Sequence record: KY295893.1
Strand: one strand, 5' to 3'
DNA: 44,931 nt
Source of the DNA: Escherichia phage vB_EcoP_D
The position numbers and the translations under genes were made by a program. Below, piece by piece: positions 7,979 to 32,096 of this stretch (positions are counted from its first letter, which is position 1; each line of letters opens with the position of its first letter). The notes beneath the pieces were generated by a model. That model was not told the DNA's origin. It saw only the letters and a list, made by a program, of their open reading frames with translations, and ran no database searches.

Positions 7979-8163
7979 GTAGGCCACTCCTTCAAGAAGG
8001 AGGACACCGCATCATGGAGGTTCTGTCTTAACCAATAGTCATCCCATTGTCTCACCTCCACTAGCTTCTCACCAGTTTTGTAATCATAGGCAACCCCAAT
8101 ATACTGTCTGGTGATTGCATTGTAGCTAATGTCCAGTTCAATTCGAGATTCAATAGTCGGCAT
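7891..8163 (-). CDS. hypothetical protein
   Basis: 90-aa ORF with ATG 8163 and RBS GGAG; its last 88 nt overlap the exonuclease start in another frame. Confidence 0.4.
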   Translation of the reverse strand: MPTIESRIELDISYNAITRQYIGVAYDYKTGEKLVEVRQWDDYWLRQNLHDAVSSFLKEWPTCDQTSTSELQYRKTIISSCGRLKVIESL

Positions 8164-8280
8164 AATTCATTCTCCAATAACTATTACGCAAAAGACCCTG
8201 CCTACACTAAGGCAGACAGGGCATTAGATGAGGTGAGCGTGATAGTCAACTAGGACTAAAAGAGGCTACACCTGCTATTA

Positions 8281-23261: not shown

Positions 23262-23475
23262 GATTAGCACCCTCTTTAAGAGTTTTGATAATGCGGTTAT
23301 ATGCTGTACCAGTTATAACTAATTTATTACCCATCTTAAGATCAATATAGTGCAGATACTTAGGCGAATAATCATAGTTATCTGGTGTGCGCATCTTACA
23401 TAAGTCATAACCTTTATCGAGGACGTGCTGAATCTCATCAACTGGCATGTTGTACGCTTTTACTTGTACTTTCAT
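23248..23475 (-). CDS. hypothetical early protein, first gene after the early promoter
   Basis: 75 aa from ATG 23475 (MKVQVKAY, RBS GAGGGA); track start 23517 is GTG. Confidence 0.45.
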   Translation of the reverse strand: MKVQVKAYNMPVDEIQHVLDKGYDLCKMRTPDNYDYSPKYLHYIDLKMGNKLVITGTAYNRIIKTLKEGANHDIK

Positions 23476-23698
23476 AGTTAATCCCTCATTCAATAAGTAA
23501 TTAACCACGGCATACACAGGTTACACTAAGCAAATTGTTAAAGAGCATTGCGCTAACCTTGGTTTATCGTGGTAGGTTATGCTTGCGCCATCTTCCACTA
23601 TCTAACATTGTTTAACGGCTTCAGTAGCTAGGCCGGATAGTTAAGGACGCTCTCTATCATTCACCCTGAGTGTTTAATGTCGCTCCCGACTGATTGCT

Positions 23699-23727
23699 AA
23701 TGTATACCTGTTAACTGCCTATGTCAA
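23699..23727 (-). promoter_or_regulatory. candidate host sigma70 early promoter (-35 TTGACA, 17-bp spacer, -10 TACATT)
   Basis: Minus strand reads TTGACA-taggcagttaacaggta-TACATT, with an AT-rich stretch upstream; lies between the short-repeat array and the first early gene. Confidence 0.5.
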
Positions 23728-23794
23728 CACTAAATCGCACTAAGATAGATTATTTATGTGATACCTGTCACAACTGCTAAGGTAAACCTAGGTT

Positions 23795-23810
23795 GTCTAA
23801 CGTGTGAGAC
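23795..23810. repeat. palindrome-like element GTCTAACGTGTGAGAC
   Basis: One arm mismatch relative to the GTCTCAC-NN-GTGAGAC family; upstream of the early promoter. Confidence 0.5.
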
Positions 23811-23949
23811 TAAGGAAAGCAATAGATACAGAGCTAGGATAGGCTAGGACGGCTAGGTTTCTGGTGTTCCTCCTACTGCATCTTATCACTATTACCTACT
23901 CTCAGCGGTCTACCGACCGCGACCTAATTGCATCTTATAGCTTTAGCTA

Positions 23950-24300
23950 TGCAATCACTAAGGTCTGGCACTAAGACTAACTAAGGTACACTACTAAGTT
24001 GATACTAAGCTAAGCACTAAGGCTTTAACTAAGGCAGCCCACTAAGGCTAACCTAAGCCATCCATCAAGGAACAACCTAAGGTACACGTGAGCGAGTGAA
24101 CGGAGCGCAAGCGGAGTGAACGAAACGAACAGATAGCCCACACCCTCACACCTTGTCAAACACTCAGGAATTGCCCTAAAACGGCCTGTGTAAGCCCTAA
24201 GCGGTTGCACTAAGGCAATCACCTTGTCCAACACTAAGGCGTGCCCTAGCGCTTCCTAGGCGTTCTACTTGTGCAGCCACTAAGAGCAGACCTCGGCAAA
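23950..24300. repeat. array of short CTAAG(G) repeats (CCTTAGT on the coding strand)
   Basis: At least 14 copies of (C)ACTAAG(G) in ~350 bp, plus longer near-repeats CACCTTGTC(A/C)AACACT(C/A)AGG at ~24145 and ~24214; non-coding. Resembles in layout the 7-bp CCTAAAG arrays next to the T7 terminal repeat. Confidence 0.6.
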
Positions 24301-24384
24301 CCTCAGCCAACCCGTCGAGCTTCCTGCTGCCGCAGGTTGAAGACGGCCCAGCCTAGCCCAATTCCCAAGCCAACCGCAGCGCGG

Positions 24385-24426
24385 CCCCATATGGGGGAAA
24401 TCCGGCGAGGGCGAGGGCGAGAGAGC
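24385..24426. other. candidate genome-terminus region: CCCCATATGGGGG palindrome plus GGCGAGGGCGAGGGCGAGAGAGC
   Basis: Coding-strand reading TCTCTCGCCCTCGCCCTCGCCGGATTTCCCCCATATGGGGCC parallels the T7 left end as I recall it (TCTCACAG...TTCCCCCATAGGGGG); non-coding and GC-rich. Confidence 0.4.
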
Positions 24427-24483
24427 TGACACACGCCTACATCAAAATTTTTTTGACTTTGGTTACTTTGTGACCACCTTTGG

Positions 24484-24639
24484 TTACACTAAGTCGAAAC
24501 CTTGTGGCTTCTTCATGTAGCACTGGATAGTTCCACCAAGTACCTTCTGGCTGGCTAAGGCCGACTCCTCGGACTCATGAATCTTCCTGAGTACATTCTT
24601 CTGGAATGGACCTACACCATACGTATGAATCCAAATCAT
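24484..24639 (-). CDS. hypothetical small protein downstream of the tailspike
   Basis: 51 aa from ATG 24639 with strong RBS AGGAGG; track ORF 24484..24693 extends upstream without RBS. Confidence 0.4.
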   Translation of the reverse strand: MIWIHTYGVGPFQKNVLRKIHESEESALASQKVLGGTIQCYMKKPQGFDLV

Positions 24640-24836
24640 GTTACCTCCTTTGGAATACACTAAGAGCAGACCTAAGCCTGCCCTTGTGTACACTAAGATA
24701 TTAACCTGCTTACGCAGAAGATGCAGAAGGTTTCTTCATGGTACGACGTTGAACATCCTTGGCAATGGCATAAGCCTGCTTAGGGTCACGTCCTGATTGA
24801 ATAAGTTCTTCTGTGTTCTGGAGTACAGCAGCTTGC

Positions 24837-27272
24837 TTAACTGATTTTATTAGTGGCATACATATCCTCTAACTTGTCTAAACGATAACGAGTATAAGCA
24901 GCCTCCAAGATTAAGATTTCACTATATCTAACACCAAACTGACCTTCTTCGAAGGAGACAATGCCGAAGTCGATTGCATCTAACCCTTCGGATGCAAAAG
25001 CAGCTACAATGTCTTGTGCCAATACACCAAAGTGAGTGTGGTGCACACCACGAGACATCTCACCAATCAACTTGTACTGCTTGAAGCTAACCTTACCCCA
25101 TGCCTTTAGTACACTCTCATCAATACCTTGTGATCCATACTTATGAGTGGCATCAGACGTAATAATAGGGTCACTTGTAAGATGGATAGTAGTGAATCTA
25201 TTACGAGGGCCTCCAGCAGGATACACGTTATCATTGTATGGCATGATAGCCCCACTTTTGAACAAGTGCTCATTGGCATTATATACTGCGCGTCTAGAAG
25301 TACTAGAACCTGCTCCATGTAAGGTAATTTGCGCACCGGTATCTGCTGCTGTACCCTCTCCCCCAGAGATGATAACACGTTGTGCGGTTGGGTTATCCGT
25401 TGGTATAGTCTTACCAATGAACCCATATTCACCTTCCATCAGCATCTCTGAGCGAATATTAGCACTTGTACTTGCCTTCAGGGTAAGGTGTTCGACAGTC
25501 ATATCTGCGGCAACTACCTCTCCTGATAAGTGAAGTGGAGCAGGAATAGTACGAATACCATCAGTACCCATGAAGGTAGGTATAGCCTGACCCGGAGTTG
25601 CACCATATGTAAACTTACGAGATACACGATTGTCATTTGCAATCTGCATCTTATAGCAGTATATATCAGTGGGGTGTCCATGACCTTTAAATGGGTCTTT
25701 ATCTTTGTTGTCACCATAAGTCATTGGGTTGAAATGGTTTTCTCCACCAAAGATATAGTAAATGTAGCTGTCTTTAACTACTACCGAACCTACACCTACA
25801 CTAGAGTTCACAATGTCACCCTGATAGATTTGGTCTGTGATGTTAACCCATTCAATGTCATCTGCATTCCACTTGTTTACATTCAATCGTGCATAGAAGG
25901 TACGAGGATAAGATGCCTTGTAACGATCATCTGGTGCACCTGCTTCCCATTCATTTTCTGCACGTTCTGAACCAAACATAATAAGGTCATCTCCTACTTT
26001 AGCAAAAGGTAAGGTAGTATGATGAACATTATGTGGAAATCTTAGTGACTCCCAAGTTTGACCTATATCTCTACTACGATGCAGAGAGCTTCCTAGTCGA
26101 TCGCCACGAGTACCACGAGTGATAAGGTACAATACACCGTCATAGTACTTGATGCATGGCTCTGCCGCATCTGGTTCATACTCAGATGGTATCTGACGAC
26201 GAACATAATTAGATGGGCTATTGAAAGCATCAGGGAAGTAGAAAAGCCCAACTTCTCGTGGAGCTACATCACCTTGATGATAGCCCATAACAAAGCCATT
26301 GTTATCAATAGTAGCAAAGCTATGCACCTCTGTGACACGAGGGATTAGACCAAGATCTGTCTTACGCCAAGGAGATTTATGGAAAGAAGTACCCATGTGC
26401 CAACTCTTTCCAGCGTTATTCAAATCTGAAGTCTGCTGGTTAGGTGTAAGAACCGTGAAGTTGTCCTTATCTATTACTGTTGCAACCTTCATATCACCAG
26501 ATACACCTGTTACCGCAGAGTTAGAGAAGTTAACAAAATCACCAACGAAGAGTCCGTGATCAGGTACATGGATTGTTGCATATCTCTGATTTGCAGCCTT
26601 AGTGATACCACCAGTAAGATGCAGACTACGAGACATAGGGCGATCCCACAATGCACAATTGGTTAGTGCGTTCTTGGCTAAAGTACGTGTTTCAATCATG
26701 GCAAACAGACGGTTGCGACATACACCCATACTCATACAATGATAGTTCACTGTAGGGTAATCTGGATGCAGATCAGTTAACCACTCTGGAGTAGACCATG
26801 TTTGACCATCGTCACCAGACTTAACCCATGATACATGCAGACGACTAACACCATGACGGTCGCTACCCATGTAAGGTGCATATATCACGTTCTCATATAC
26901 AAACGCTTTGTCTTGAGGCCAAGCATTGTAATAAGGGTTATCCGTGATTTTATAGAGTTCACCATTGATAAAACCTTTACTCACATAGTAAAGAGGTTGA
27001 CCTGCTAAACGTTCCCATACGAAGCGGGTGTTATAGAATCGCTCCATATCAGGTAAAGATGATACTTTGTAAGTAGCACCAGCACCGTCAATTCTCTTAC
27101 CTGAAGCCATCGCTGCATTTACTGCATCTTGGTCGTTTGTCTTACCATCACCTTTGGCTCCAAAATCTTTAAGCGATACAACCTCGGTGAGCTTGTCATC
27201 CAAGTTACGCCAGATTGCACCTGCTATTTTACTCTTGAATTTAACTAATGAAGAACCTAGTCTTTGAATCAT
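24837..27272 (-). CDS. tailspike endosialidase (endo-N-acetylneuraminidase) with C-terminal intramolecular chaperone domain
   Basis: 811-aa ORF with two Asp-box sialidase motifs (SGDDGQTW, SRDIGQTW) and a large beta-propeller-sized body; length matches the 811-aa endosialidases I recall for K1E/K1-5; RBS AAGGAGG. Confidence 0.85.
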   Translation of the reverse strand: MIQRLGSSLVKFKSKIAGAIWRNLDDKLTEVVSLKDFGAKGDGKTNDQDAVNAAMASGKRIDGAGATYKVSSLPDMERFYNTRFVWERLAGQPLYYVSKGFINGELYKITDNPYYNAWPQDKAFVYENVIYAPYMGSDRHGVSRLHVSWVKSGDDGQTWSTPEWLTDLHPDYPTVNYHCMSMGVCRNRLFAMIETRTLAKNALTNCALWDRPMSRSLHLTGGITKAANQRYATIHVPDHGLFVGDFVNFSNSAVTGVSGDMKVATVIDKDNFTVLTPNQQTSDLNNAGKSWHMGTSFHKSPWRKTDLGLIPRVTEVHSFATIDNNGFVMGYHQGDVAPREVGLFYFPDAFNSPSNYVRRQIPSEYEPDAAEPCIKYYDGVLYLITRGTRGDRLGSSLHRSRDIGQTWESLRFPHNVHHTTLPFAKVGDDLIMFGSERAENEWEAGAPDDRYKASYPRTFYARLNVNKWNADDIEWVNITDQIYQGDIVNSSVGVGSVVVKDSYIYYIFGGENHFNPMTYGDNKDKDPFKGHGHPTDIYCYKMQIANDNRVSRKFTYGATPGQAIPTFMGTDGIRTIPAPLHLSGEVVAADMTVEHLTLKASTSANIRSEMLMEGEYGFIGKTIPTDNPTAQRVIISGGEGTAADTGAQITLHGAGSSTSRRAVYNANEHLFKSGAIMPYNDNVYPAGGPRNRFTTIHLTSDPIITSDATHKYGSQGIDESVLKAWGKVSFKQYKLIGEMSRGVHHTHFGVLAQDIVAAFASEGLDAIDFGIVSFEEGQFGVRYSEILILEAAYTRYRLDKLEDMYATNKIS

Positions 27273-27754: not shown

Positions 27755-27777
27755 CTCTTCTATAGTGTCAGTAAATC
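27755..27777 (-). promoter_or_regulatory. phage RNAP promoter upstream of the tailspike module (GATTTACTGACACTATAGAAGAG)
   Basis: -10 to +6 (TGACACTATAGAAGAG) identical to the SP6 consensus; upstream part shifted relative to the main class; +1 G at 27760. Confidence 0.6.
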
Positions 27778-29427: not shown

Positions 29428-29450
29428 TCCTTCTATAGTGTCCGGTAATT
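29428..29450 (-). promoter_or_regulatory. phage RNAP promoter, main subclass (AATTACCGGACACTATAGAAGGA)
   Basis: +1 G at 29433; overlaps the terminase stop codon; upstream of the paralog pair and lysis genes. Confidence 0.55.
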
Positions 29451-30180
29451 AATAAGTCCTTGAAATCCTTGCAGAAAGTGTATTTCTGCTTGCCGATTTA
29501 CTCCTGTAATTCTGACCGTATACTCTTTGCTGCATAGCCACGGAAGTGTTGGTTACTCTTCGCTCAGTGCCATAATCTCCATAGAGCATTGCCCTACGGA
29601 GGTGAGGTGTGTTCATAGCTTGGATATAATCGCGCATCTCCTGCGCTCTGAGGCGATTAATCCGTGTAACCTCGTCATAGTCTATCTGAGAAGTTAATTG
29701 CCGTATAGCGCCATACAGCGCGTCTAAGCGGTCATCGTGCCGGAGGCTGTTCTTCTCAATCGTGATGTTCGACATTTGATTGAAAAGGCTGTATGACATG
29801 CGTAGTTCAAGCGGATAGTGCTGTACCGACTCAAAATCAGACTTGACCATCTCTGCGTTGAAGATGAGCCTGTGGGCCGCCATTAGTGGCTCTAGTGTTT
29901 CAATGATACGCAACTCTTTCTGTCCGGTGGCGTAATCTTCCTCCAGAGTCACAGGCCACTCTCGTTCAAAGTATGGCTTTATAACGGCCTCAAACGCGCC
30001 ATGACCAAAGTTCTTTTCAATGAATACCTCTTTAACACCTGCCTGCTTTGCGGCCTGCACAATGCGATTCAGGGACGATTCGCGGTATCCTCCCGGCACA
30101 CCAAAGCACTGATACACATAAATGAATGTGCCGTGCAGGAAGACGATAGCCACACCCGTTTCATCCCCATTCTTACCTCC
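29449..30180 (-). CDS. terminase large subunit, exon 2 (nuclease domain)
   Basis: Encodes GGKNGDETGVAIVFLHG... and a downstream HDDRLDAL acidic motif; in frame with exon 1 after removal of 30181..30926; spliced product ~633 aa. Confidence 0.75.
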   Translation of the reverse strand, partial: GGKNGDETGVAIVFLHGTFIYVYQCFGVPGGYRESSLNRIVQAAKQAGVKEVFIEKNFGHGAFEAVIKPYFEREWPVTLEEDYATGQKELRIIETLEPLMAAHRLIFNAEMVKSDFESVQHYPLELRMSYSLFNQMSNITIEKNSLRHDDRLDALYGAIRQLTSQIDYDEVTRINRLRAQEMRDYIQAMNTPHLRRAMLYGDYGTERRVTNTSVAMQQRVYGQNYRSKSASRNTLSARISRTY

Positions 30181-30706
30181 CGGTTTGAACGTGACGTGCG
30201 AGCCAACCCTTGTGGTGTTTACGTAAACCATGTGCCACCTTACGCATATTCTGAGGTGTTAGGTTGTGCTCTTTACAGAAGTCAGTAATGCAAGTTACAA
30301 GAAACTCTTCACCATCTGGAGAAGTGAATATGTAATCTTTGCCAGTACCTTTGTTGTAAGGTGTCATGCCTTTCTTGAACTCAGTGGCAACAGACAAGTG
30401 CTGTCCTTTCTTGATTTCAGTGGCAATACTTATGCGTTCACCTTTCTCGATGTTACCTGCTTTGCGATAACCACCTTTACCCTTATTCCAACCCATGTTG
30501 TCATGTGGGCGTAGCTTCTCTTCTAGTGCATAACACTCTTCTTTGCTACCAGTGAATAAGATAACGTACTCGCGGCCATCACAAAGACGGCCTGCACACT
30601 TGTGCTCTCTCATACGCTTCTTAATATCGGAGGTTACACCAATATAACCTTGCATTACATCAGTTTCACCAACAACACGAATATGATAAACTTTATGCTC
30701 TGTCAT
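30173..30706 (-). CDS. GIY-YIG homing endonuclease, intron-encoded
   Basis: 177 aa, RBS AAGGGAG; N-terminal KVYHIRVVGETDVMQGYIGVTSDIKKRMREH fits the GIY...YIG...R...E pattern, followed by repeated basic GxxxxxxxIATExKKG segments; stop codon lies 6-8 nt past the predicted 3' splice site. Confidence 0.85.
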   Translation of the reverse strand: MTEHKVYHIRVVGETDVMQGYIGVTSDIKKRMREHKCAGRLCDGREYVILFTGSKEECYALEEKLRPHDNMGWNKGKGGYRKAGNIEKGERISIATEIKKGQHLSVATEFKKGMTPYNKGTGKDYIFTSPDGEEFLVTCITDFCKEHNLTPQNMRKVAHGLRKHHKGWLARHVQTGR

Positions 30707-30926
30707 ATTTAACTCCCTTCAATTGTTACGTTAATTCGCTACTTTAACTTCTACTAGTCACCTAGTAGGTCGGACTATATCTTAGGCTTGCGCCTCCCTC
30801 TGTTTCAGACCGCTTGGCCTTACAGTTAGTCTCTACACGTTCCTGTTATTGCAACAGGCTTCGCTCGGTATTGTCTCAGTGAGAGTTCCACCGAATTAAG
30901 AGGGTTTTACGCTGGCAGAGGTGTTT
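30181..30926 (-). mobile_element. group I intron in the terminase large-subunit gene
   Basis: Intron RNA contains matches to the group I core elements: P-like AAUUCGGUGGAA (30886..30897), Q-like AAUACCGAGC (30863..30872), R-like GUGUAGAGACUAAC (30825..30838), S AAGAUAUAGUCCG (30771..30783). Predicted P1 pairs exon GCUGGU with GCCAGC (30911..30916) with a U.G at the splice site; predicted P10 pairs exon 2 GGAGGU with ACCUCU; last intron base is G. Confidence 0.75.
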
Positions 30927-32096
30927 ACCAGCGGGGTCAATGTACATAATTTTACGGGTGACAGCGCCCCATTCATACGGTCGGGCCACAGGGCGATACA
31001 TAAAGTCTGTAGGCTTATTGCCATACTTCGGTGCATCGCCAATGATGTTAATAGAGTCGTTGCTCCATGTAGGCATCACAGGGACTTCCTCTGTACCGAA
31101 TGAAGTGAAGATGAGGTTGTTCAGGCGTAGCGGATAGCGGTCAGCATCCATCATGCGAGTGTTAAGCATAAACTGAAGCTGGAACTTAGCCGCACCCTGC
31201 GAGATTTCCTTCTCAATCAGCACATCATCATCATACATTTCAGGTGCACAAGGGGCACCACTATTGCCATCCAAGCCATACCCTGAGCGAAGTGCTGGGT
31301 TGTCCTTCATATCCTGCACAATCATAGGTGCAAGGAAGTCGCCATAGCATTGCTCCTGCTCCACTGAGGGATAACGTGCAGTCCAGATACGAACAGAGTA
31401 ACCACGAGCAGGTAGGTTATTGTAGATAGAGTTTACGTTCTGAGGAGTACCAAGGTAGATAATATCACCAAACTGGTTAATAGATTCAAACTCCTTGGTC
31501 AGTTCCTCAAGCAAGGCACGTCCTGCCGCTGTACGAGCATTCTGCATTGACTCAACGTCATCTGCTAGGATGATATCTGCACGCGCACCCTGCATACCTG
31601 CTTCGATTGAGTAACAAGACACAGAAGGCGACTTGTCACTGCCACGTAGGGTGTAATGAATCTCAAATGCCTTAACTGAGGCACGGTCCCCTGCGTAGAT
31701 GTCCGGTAGCATAAACTCAAGAAAGTCTAGGCCACGGAAGATTTTAACTACCCAACCTGCGATTTCCTCTGCTCGCTTGGCGTTTTGGGATACAACCATG
31801 ATACGCTTATGCGGTTCATGAATGATACGGAATACTGTATAGATTGCTGATAGTGTTGTCTTAGCGATACCACGAGGCGCTTCGATGAGGCGATACTTGT
31901 GTCCGTAGAATAGGAACTTCAAGATATCAGCCTGCATACGAATCAGATGAGGGTTGCCTGCAATTAAGTTATGAATAACTGTGTCTGCAAAGAGAAGCAA
32001 ACCTTCCGCTGTGTAAGGAAAGGTCTGCTGTAACTCCTGTAGCATCTCCCATCTGGCAAGAGCCTCCGCTTGTGATTCTCTTGCCTTAGCCATCAA
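30927..32096 (-). CDS. terminase large subunit, exon 1 (ATPase domain)
   Basis: Encodes 390 aa up to ...KIMYIDPAG; track ORF continues 16 codons into the intron to a stop (...KHLCQRKTLLIRWNSH). ATG at 32093 follows an in-frame TTG at 32096. Confidence 0.8.

Follow-up and report, generated by a model that had tools for sequence, protein, structure and literature searches.

Whether the DNA between the tailspike gene and the early promoters of Escherichia phage vB_EcoP_D holds the physical ends of the genome, and what the many copies of a short motif do there, are questions raised by a record that looks circular. The window analyzed here is the whole of sequence record KY295893.1 (44,931 nucleotides). 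Its genes lie on the minus strand, which is the genome strand, and the plus-strand motif CTAAG accordingly reads CTTAG in the direction of the genes. A reading made from the sequence alone (the sequence-only reading) had proposed that positions 23950 to 24700 contain short-repeat arrays, a T7-like palindrome, and the genome termini. In T7, concatemers share one copy of the terminal repeat, the repeat is duplicated at maturation, and a pause of the polymerase aids processing. Comparison with related genomes indicates that the stretch is very probably the concatemer junction of a K1E-like podophage (Vectrevirus, T7 supergroup) as seen in a circularized short-read assembly. It is real and well conserved, yet ordinary: the expected concatemer junction of a K1E-like phage and no new kind of element.

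The provenance of the record agrees with this assignment. The region from 23500 to 24900 is 100% identical to vB_EcoP_C and vB_EcoP_R and 88 to 95% identical to K1E by blastn. Phages vB_EcoP_R, -C, -D, -B, and -K are the anti-K1 phages of Smith and Huggins, which were sequenced by Baig et al. (2017; PMC5582158). In that study, each SPAdes contig was circularized, and terminal repeats of 250 to 289 bp, 92 to 96% identical to that of K1E, were reported for R, B, C, D, and K. Published sizes of the genomes exceed the lengths of the deposited records by 289 (45230 versus 44941 for R and 45259 versus 44970 for C; PMC5582158). Because the contigs were circularized and the records are short by 289, the window represents the permuted, single-repeat form of a linear genome. 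A single repeat copy in such a permuted record had been anticipated by the sequence-only reading, and the 16- to 20-mers at both boundaries each occur only once in the window, as expected for the circularized assemblies (PMC5582158). The existence and length of the repeat are already known, having been published for these isolates (Baig et al. 2017; PMC5582158); that paper gives them without coordinates, and the pause core, palindrome, and arrays are absent from its account. For annotation, the circular-looking record is to be opened on the minus strand, with 24422 as the left end and 24134 as the right, and the full genome exceeds the record by 289 bp (about 45,220 bp in all). ORFs called across 24134 to 24422 in relatives, such as K1E gp48, enter the repeat and are therefore doubtful.

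The ends were placed by alignment to K1E, K1-5, SP6, mutPK1A2, and phD2B, each of which was deposited with both ends. In these records, the left and right copies of the repeat are identical, with lengths of 288 bp in K1E, 286 bp in mutPK1A2, 234 bp in K1-5, 174 bp in SP6, and 262 bp in phD2B; it is annotated in mutPK1A2 (286 nt, "redundant repeat") and in phD2B (262 bp), and the T7 terminal repeat is 160 bp. The K1E record (AM084415) is linear, and its first 288 nt recur exactly at its right end. The 289-bp repeat of the window aligns base for base with that of K1E, from which it differs by about 5% substitutions, with the K1E left end TCTCGCCCTCGCCCTCGCC at 24422 and the right end ...GGGTGTGGGCTA at 24134, whereas the repeats of K1-5 and SP6 are shorter. 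In addition, seven independent linear records stop at the equivalent of 24134, and others start at 24422 (blastn). All 17 relatives compared have unaltered boundary sequences, CAGC-TCTCTCG and GGGCTA-TCTGTT (hyphens mark the boundary), although the two are separated by anything from 174 to 307 nt. On the strength of these alignments, the left terminus would lie at 24422 and read TCTCGCC..., give or take a few nucleotides, and the right terminus is predicted at 24134, reading ...GGGCTA. The exact terminal nucleotides are less certain, since SP6, K1E, mutPK1A2/phD2B, and K1-5 were deposited with left ends that differ by 0 to 4 nt in identical local sequence, and the run-off and Bal31 ends published for UAB_Phi78 are displaced by 15 and 10 nt despite identical local sequence. 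The Pm5460 record starts with TCTCGCC and ends with ...CAGCTC. An artifact of run-off sequencing could explain the last A of the right end, since the next genomic base is likewise A; T7 ends at ...CCCT-ATCTGTT, one base before this A, whereas the deposited ends of the phages compared here include it. Alignment to the ends of SP6, K1-5, and K1E, which the sequence-only reading had suggested as a check, thus places the genome ends within 23950 to 24700. Its narrower bracket of 24300 to 24480 for both termini holds for the left one, but the right one lies 166 bp outside it. The repeat does not fit in this bracket, with only about 123 of its 289 bp inside, and is more than twice as long as had been guessed.

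The packaging machinery encoded in the window is of the T7 type. The terminase small subunit (32437->32093) matches PF11123 (E value of 5e-16), the large subunit matches PF22530 (E value of 3e-33) and PDB entry 4bij, "DNA maturase B" (E value of 2e-49), and the single-subunit RNA polymerase matches PF00940 and PF14700. Both terminase subunits and the polymerase are therefore those of the T7 supergroup, as are the repeat boundaries, which are homologous to the mapped ends of relatives. These matches bear on the possibility that the phage has no fixed ends here, being packaged by the headful or cut elsewhere, with the likeness to K1E reflecting conserved noncoding DNA. The circular look of the assembly would suit such a phage, but its terminase is of the T7 short-repeat type by domain matches and in the terminase tree (PMC5582158), and both invariant boundaries coincide with the ends of at least seven independent linear records, which makes this possibility very remote. 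The relatives used were taken from a phage record collection; a scan of viral contigs with the conserved cut-site block returned eight loci, mostly from the same isolates. The features of the junction are listed in Table 1.

Table 1. Features of the predicted concatemer junction of vB_EcoP_D, in the order of the genome (minus) strand
Feature	Positions	Strand	Sequence or basis
49-aa small gene, homolog of gene 48 of K1-5/SP6	24710..24859	-	Overlaps end of tailspike gene
Gene-junction motif copies	24645..24697	-	CTTAGTGTACACAAGGGCAGGCTTAGGTCTGCTCTTAGTGTATTCCAAAGGAGGTAAC-ATG; comparison with relatives
51-aa small gene	24484..24639	-	Ribosome site AAGGAGGT; stop codon inside CTTAGTGTAA motif
Conserved pre-repeat block, 58 nt	24423..24480	-	GGTGGTCACAAAGTAACCAAAGTCAAAAAAATTTTGATGTAGGCGTGTGTCAGCTC; blastn conservation
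Left-terminus cut zone (predicted)	24418..24426	-	Within GTGTGTCAGC.TC.T.C.TCGCC; K1E-type call, base 1 = 24422
Direct terminal repeat, single collapsed copy, 289 bp	24134..24422	-	TCTCGCCCTCGCCCTCGCC ... GGGTGTGGGCTA; alignment to relatives
Palindrome, CCCCATA(T)GGG type	24385..24397		CCCCATATGGGGG, also CCCCATATGGGG(G); starts at nt 27 from TCTC left end
16-bp repeat	24278..24293 (in terminal repeat); 24658-24673 (second copy)	+	CACTAAGAGCAGACCT; exact match
Four CTTAG copies inside repeat	24197..24284	-	Motif count
T plus 7-nt class II pause core ATCTGTT	24128..24135 (core 24134->24128)	-	TATCTGTT; straddles right boundary
Indel-rich, CGCT/CACT-rich variable spacer, pause core to array	24085..24127	-	Alignment
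Post-repeat array, 11 copies of CTTAG(T/G)	23958..24081	-	53-176 nt past right end of repeat
Two sigma-70 promoter-like sites	23699..23771	-	TTGACA-17-TACATT and GTGACA-18-TATCTT; consensus scan, downstream of array

At the left end, conservation as far as SP6 and phages of Proteus, Klebsiella, and Lelliottia is confined, within this region, to the pre-repeat block and the first ~40 nt of the repeat (blastn). K1E, K1-5 (AY370674), and SP6 (AY370673) share with the window the left end TCTCGCCCTCGCC and the palindrome at nt 27, and T7 likewise has a left end TCTC and a palindrome, CCCCATAGGGG, from nt 27. The palindrome starts at nt 27 in all seven phages compared (the window phage, K1E, SP6, K1-5, phD2B, Pm5460, and T7). 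The palindrome had been read from the sequence as part of a GC-rich segment, and this is confirmed, with 59% G+C in the segment versus 45% in the window. As a single-strand hairpin, it folds no better than shuffled sequences (z score of -0.33), so that a role as a hairpin was rejected and recognition as duplex DNA is more likely. The pre-repeat block with the palindrome at nt 27 to 38 is likely the region recognized by the terminase for the left-end cut, a candidate role suggested by this pattern of conservation. Before the repeat, K1E has a 7-codon ORF, whereas the window has the 51-aa gene.

At the right end, the boundary reads ...GGGCTA-TCTGTTCGTTTCG, and K1E, K1-5, and SP6 have the same end, ...GGGCTA, followed by TCTGTTCGTTT. 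All 17 relatives have the motif TATCTGTT at this boundary, among them phD2B with its different flanks, and T7 has ATCTGTT at its right boundary as well. On the coding strand of the whole 44.9-kb window, ATCTGTT occurs twice, and the boundary copy is one of the two. ATCTGTT on the nontemplate strand is the strictly conserved core of class II pause and termination signals of T7 RNA polymerase, of which the sole natural example is the T7 concatemer junction (bioRxiv 10.1101/2021.01.11.426313; 10.64898/2026.02.12.705533; PMC11617373). The window copy lies on the nontemplate strand, read in the direction of transcription, with a T directly before it (TATCTGTT), in agreement with the rule of He et al. 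(1998), quoted in bioRxiv 10.64898/2026.02.12.705533, that A, C, or T directly precedes the core. A downstream U-run is needed for release rather than mere pausing (PMC11617373). No run of four or more T residues directly follows the core in the window, where the downstream sequence is ATCTGTTCGTTTCGTT, and the T7 junction site also has no T-run (ATCTGTTACAG). A pause is therefore predicted, not efficient termination, as at the T7 junction. The region of the pause core is unstructured (z score of +1.28), and an Rfam search of 23300 to 24900 found no known RNA family. In a literature search, no documented pausing of an SP6- or K1E-type polymerase at ATCTGTT was found. The repeats of T7 and the SP6-like phages are otherwise dissimilar, and it is of modest interest that the pause core and the palindrome at nt 27 do not vary between them.

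The promoters around the junction are arranged differently from those of T7. The window contains 13 phage promoters with the core GACACTATAGAAG, all on the minus strand. No promoter core was found between the tailspike gene and the repeat or within 600 bp upstream of the repeat; the closest promoter directed toward the junction lies 3.3 kb upstream, at 27769, and is not placed like T7 phiOR. In T7, promoters flank the repeat closely (phiOL at 405 and phiOR ~550 bp before the right repeat), whereas the window has none within 2.8 kb. Chung and Hinkle reportedly found in 1990 that phiOR upstream of the right repeat is required for the packaging of junction plasmids. A host promoter at the right end of the repeat was considered, with a conserved TTGACA 17 nt upstream of CTATCT, and was rejected, as it fails the -10 criteria and lacks a TGnTA motif. 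The T7 junction has been reported as a sigma-70 promoter with a TGnTA motif (2026 preprint). The two sigma-70-like sites downstream of the array are a positional annotation only, as their count does not exceed that in shuffled sequences.

Beyond the right boundary lies the array. Between 23950 and 24700, CTAAG occurs 20 times on the plus strand and not once on the minus strand; the lower copies are at 23958, 23971, 23981, 23994, 24005, 24010, 24017, 24029, 24042, 24053, and 24077, and the upper ones are at 24197, 24210, 24234, 24280, 24489, 24555, 24660, 24672, and 24693. The sequence-only reading had counted at least 17 copies of CTAAG(G), which is thus exceeded, on a single strand. A first-order Markov model predicts 0.86 copies per strand in these 751 nt and 0.14 in the 124-nt core array, where 11 are observed. 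In addition, 12 of the 20 copies of CTTAGTG (genome strand) in the window fall within 23400 to 24900, with none on the other strand there. The CTAAG copies fall into three classes, namely, the post-repeat array, those within the repeat, and those at gene junctions. The idea that arrays flank the repeat on both sides therefore stands in part: the 11-copy array follows the repeat, but four copies lie inside it and the tailspike side is sparse, with five copies, three of them at gene junctions. A short-repeat array adjoining the repeat is a trait of the T7 supergroup, but the flanking here is asymmetric. The successive spacings in the array are 24, 11, 13, 12, 7, 5, 11, 13, 10, and 13 nt, mostly 10 to 13 nt. 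The CACTAAG copies were also considered as antisense fragments of phage promoters, an explanation that was discarded, as every promoter with the phage core lies on the minus strand and outside this region.

Alignment with 15 relatives shows that the CTTAGT copies are under selection as a motif. The motif columns are 94.9% identical to the window, versus 77.7% for the spacers, and in a rotation test of the motif mask along the array, 0 of 123 rotations were as extreme. Nine of the 11 copies are kept in at least 13 of the 15 relatives, and the conserved unit is CTTAGT. In K1E, K1-5, and SP6, the array aligns copy for copy. Equivalent arrays with spacings of 11 to 13 nt are present in SP6 and Proteus phage Pm5460 (the same motif, 11 to 12 nt), Lelliottia phage phD2B (CATGAT), and T7 (C/ATAAAG, 13 nt). 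By group, the motif is CTTAGT in Vectrevirus, Zindervirus, and Acadevirus, CATGAT in Tuodvirus, and CTAAAG in T7. T7 has 11 short repeats just after its repeat, on a single strand as in the window and with a spacing of ~13 nt, starting 16 nt after the repeat versus 53 nt in the window; the motifs differ (C/ATAAAG versus CTTAGT), and there is no other detectable sequence similarity. The parallel with T7 that the sequence-only reading had drawn thus holds for the array adjoining the repeat and for the palindrome, which is equally far from the left end. The position, polarity, and phasing of the array are conserved across these genomes, and the motif changes between genera. An array as a functionless by-product of replication slippage or unequal recombination in noncoding end DNA would account for a copy number that varies among relatives (7 to 12 within 330 nt), for the copies at offsets 97 and 164 that are kept in only 9 and 7 of the 15 relatives, and for the indel-rich spacer next to it (24085 to 24127), which has indels of 4 to 26 nt and little conservation in the 15 relatives and is shorter in the window than in K1E. 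We consider this origin improbable, since it does not predict the higher identity of motif columns, their retention at aligned positions, or an orientation so absolute that no reverse copy occurs in the region. The conserved position, polarity, and phasing argue against neutral slippage and fit a row of putative sites for a phage-encoded protein, and the difference in motif between genera (CTTAG, CATGAT, and CTAAAG) argues against a shared host factor.

The copies on the tailspike side are of another kind. The tailspike gene (an 811-aa endosialidase) ends at 24837 and is followed by two small genes. The 49-aa gene is 83 to 98% identical in 14 relatives (tblastn) and is annotated as gene 48 in K1-5 and SP6. 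The 51-aa gene is 76 to 96% identical over 51 aa in CrRp3, CC1, vB_EcoP_B, mutPK1A2, and an IMG/VR contig (tblastn) and is annotated as a CDS in several of these five. The stretch had been taken for noncoding DNA, a description that has to be withdrawn in part, as the 51-aa ORF (24639->24484) is conserved as a protein in five relatives. Three of the five motif copies on this side lie in a ~27-nt junction, CTTAGTGTAA-yCAAAGGAGGTAAC-ATG, which holds both the stop codon of one small gene and the ribosome site for the gene after it. K1E, K1-5, SP6, vB_EcoP_B, and mutPK1A2 have this junction, as CTTAGTGTAAyCAAAGGAGGTAAC-ATG, in front of different small ORFs; finding one junction around different ORFs suggests cassette exchange at the small-gene junctions.

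These observations raise the alternative that the CTTAGT copies are unrelated elements, gene junctions on the tailspike side and regulatory or structural DNA in the early region, whose closeness to the termini is incidental. It draws on the three copies in CTTAGTGTAA(stop)-CCAAAGGAGGTAAC-ATG junctions, one copy inside the 51-aa gene, and further copies beside the host-type promoters at 23744 and 23814 and upstream of gene 1 at 23530. However, no conserved ORF is present in the 11-copy core array, which is located upstream of the predicted early promoters, and arrays 45 to 175 nt past the repeat with a spacing of 11 to 13 nt recur with another motif in phD2B and T7. An array in the same place with different motifs in phD2B and T7 ties its position to the repeat boundary and not to a gene, and we lean against the alternative, although it has a real share of plausibility.

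Returning to the concatemer junction as the preferred reading, the course of events can be outlined by analogy with T7. The virion DNA of the relatives carries the same sequence at both ends, and the assembler would have merged the two copies into one at 24134 to 24422. Replication would yield head-to-tail concatemers sharing one copy of the repeat, and the T7-type terminase would cut two related sites, GCTC-TCTC and GCTA-TCTG, with the pre-repeat block and the palindrome at nt 27 to 38 likely being recognized for the left-end cut and the repeat being duplicated during maturation. The phage polymerase may enter from the late promoter at 27769, meet TATCTGTT at the right boundary, and pause, in the manner of T7 polymerase at its own junction, so that the site is marked for processing. 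The left short-repeat array of T7 would have its counterpart in the 11 phased CTTAGT copies of the left unique DNA. Being strand specific and spaced by about one helical turn, they might, speculatively, form a row of binding sites for a protein of the end that is ejected first and packaged last.

A literature search found no function for such short-repeat arrays in this phage group, and the only matches to the motifs CCTAAAG and CCTTAGT in it were unrelated primers. As a tentative proposal, which we hold to be rather doubtful in its present form, the array would offer a row of binding sites, specific to the genus, to a phage protein in charge of the first-ejected, last-packaged end, and the motif would coevolve with this protein; separately, the CTTAGTGTAA-CCAAAGGAGGTAAC-ATG junctions before the right repeat may be recombination joints of small genes. 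The small terminase and an ejected core protein are candidates for the protein binding the array. That the motif is selected yet has changed between genera gives the array a modest interest, and the well-sampled phage group is suited to tests of its function.

Inside the terminal repeat, one to four CTTAG copies are present in all relatives except phD2B. A ~20-nt unit, CCTTAGTGTTGGACAAGGTG (24239->24220), takes in two of the within-repeat copies in the window and recurs in degenerate form as CCTGAGTGTTTGACAAGGTG (24168->24149), at 90% identity. The sequence-only reading had also pointed out a 16-bp direct repeat at 24278 and 24658, and CACTAAGAGCAGACCT is indeed exact in both places, the second copy lying directly upstream of the ribosome site of the 51-aa gene. 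The exact pair occurs only in the window, and most relatives have one to three mismatches or a single copy; as a separate conserved element it was rejected, not being kept among relatives. The 16-bp repeat is probably a local consequence of two motif copies that share flanks, one at the gene junction and one within the terminal repeat.

Two neighbouring hairpins, ATTGCATAGCTAAAGCTATAAGATGCAAT and GGTCGCGGTCGGTAGACCGC, lie directly past the array of 11 CTTAG(T/G) copies that follows the right end of the collapsed terminal repeat, and the segment that holds them folds much more strongly than its shuffled versions (z of -4.2; 0 of 200 shuffles). Among the 15 relatives aligned across the right boundary and the array, GGTCGCGGTCGGTAGACCGC is unchanged in 14, the exception being Proteus phage Pm5460, and ATTGCATAGCTAAAGCTATAAGATGCAAT is represented in K1-5-type phages by the compensatory variant CACATGCAAGCATGT. 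The motif ATAAGATGCA is present twice in this region. Away from the end region, CTTAGTGTA has a single copy, which serves as the loop of another hairpin; this hairpin is followed by a T-run (CCCTGTCTGC-CTTAGTGTA-GGCAGGG-TCTTTT) and lies upstream of a gene starting near 8163, making it a terminator-like site.

At the right end of the repeat, TTGACA lies 17 nt upstream of CTATCT and is kept in all 15 aligned sequences, a set from which phD2B, which lacks TTGACA, was excluded. The arrangement is reminiscent of T7, in which the concatemer junction signal is reported to act also as a sigma-70 promoter (2026 preprint). As a candidate sigma-70 promoter, the window site falls short of the criteria for a -10 element, and TGnTA is absent. 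Relative to the repeat boundaries deposited for SP6, the terminal repeat of UAB_Phi78 (GU595417.2, 1-180), both annotated and published, starts 15 nt earlier and ends 10 nt earlier, despite identical sequence in the two phages at these boundaries; the UAB_Phi78 record carries no right-hand repeat copy.

In the stretch from the tailspike gene to the right repeat, small genes are flanked by a junction of about 27 nt, CTTAGTGTAA-yCAAAGGAGGTAAC-ATG, in the window and in five of the relatives' loci (L002, which is K1E, L004, L006, L008, and L032), and several of the small ORFs end in ...Leu-Val-stop inside this motif. The enclosed ORFs are not alike across K1E, K1-5, SP6, vB_EcoP_B, mutPK1A2, and the window, and by sequence comparison these differences look like cassette exchange at the repeated joints. 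The annotated K1E gp48 coding sequence (44868-45083) extends 120 nt past position 44964, where the right terminal repeat begins, and no counterpart ORF was found in the window; this annotation is probably spurious.

On vB_EcoP_C, the two terminal 2.5-kb segments of the window, its last and its first, are placed 140 nt apart (23661 and 23802), and no overlap was found between window ends 1 and 44931. Either about 140 nt are missing from the window at its junction, or vB_EcoP_C has extra sequence there. Elsewhere in the window, the large terminase gene is split, with a full-length match to a group I intron and a GIY-YIG/NUMOD-like ORF among the listed features.

Coordinates of the features in the window
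Feature	Position	Strand	Remark
Hairpin with T-run	8180-8215	minus	
Hairpins ATTGCATAGCTAAAGCTATAAGATGCAAT and GGTCGCGGTCGGTAGACCGC	23895-23955	minus	
ATAAGATGCA copies	23877-86; 23929-38		
TTGACA-17-CTATCT	24136-24162	minus	
Small genes with ~27-nt junctions	24475-24700		
Split large terminase gene	29449-32096	minus	
Large terminase, N-terminal ATPase part	32096->30876	minus	
Group I intron match	30999->30751	minus	Rfam RF00028; 61 bits vs gathering score 50, E 2e-14
GIY-YIG/NUMOD-like ORF	30706->30173	minus	weak Pfam matches
Large terminase, C-terminal T7-type nuclease domain	30231->29449	minus
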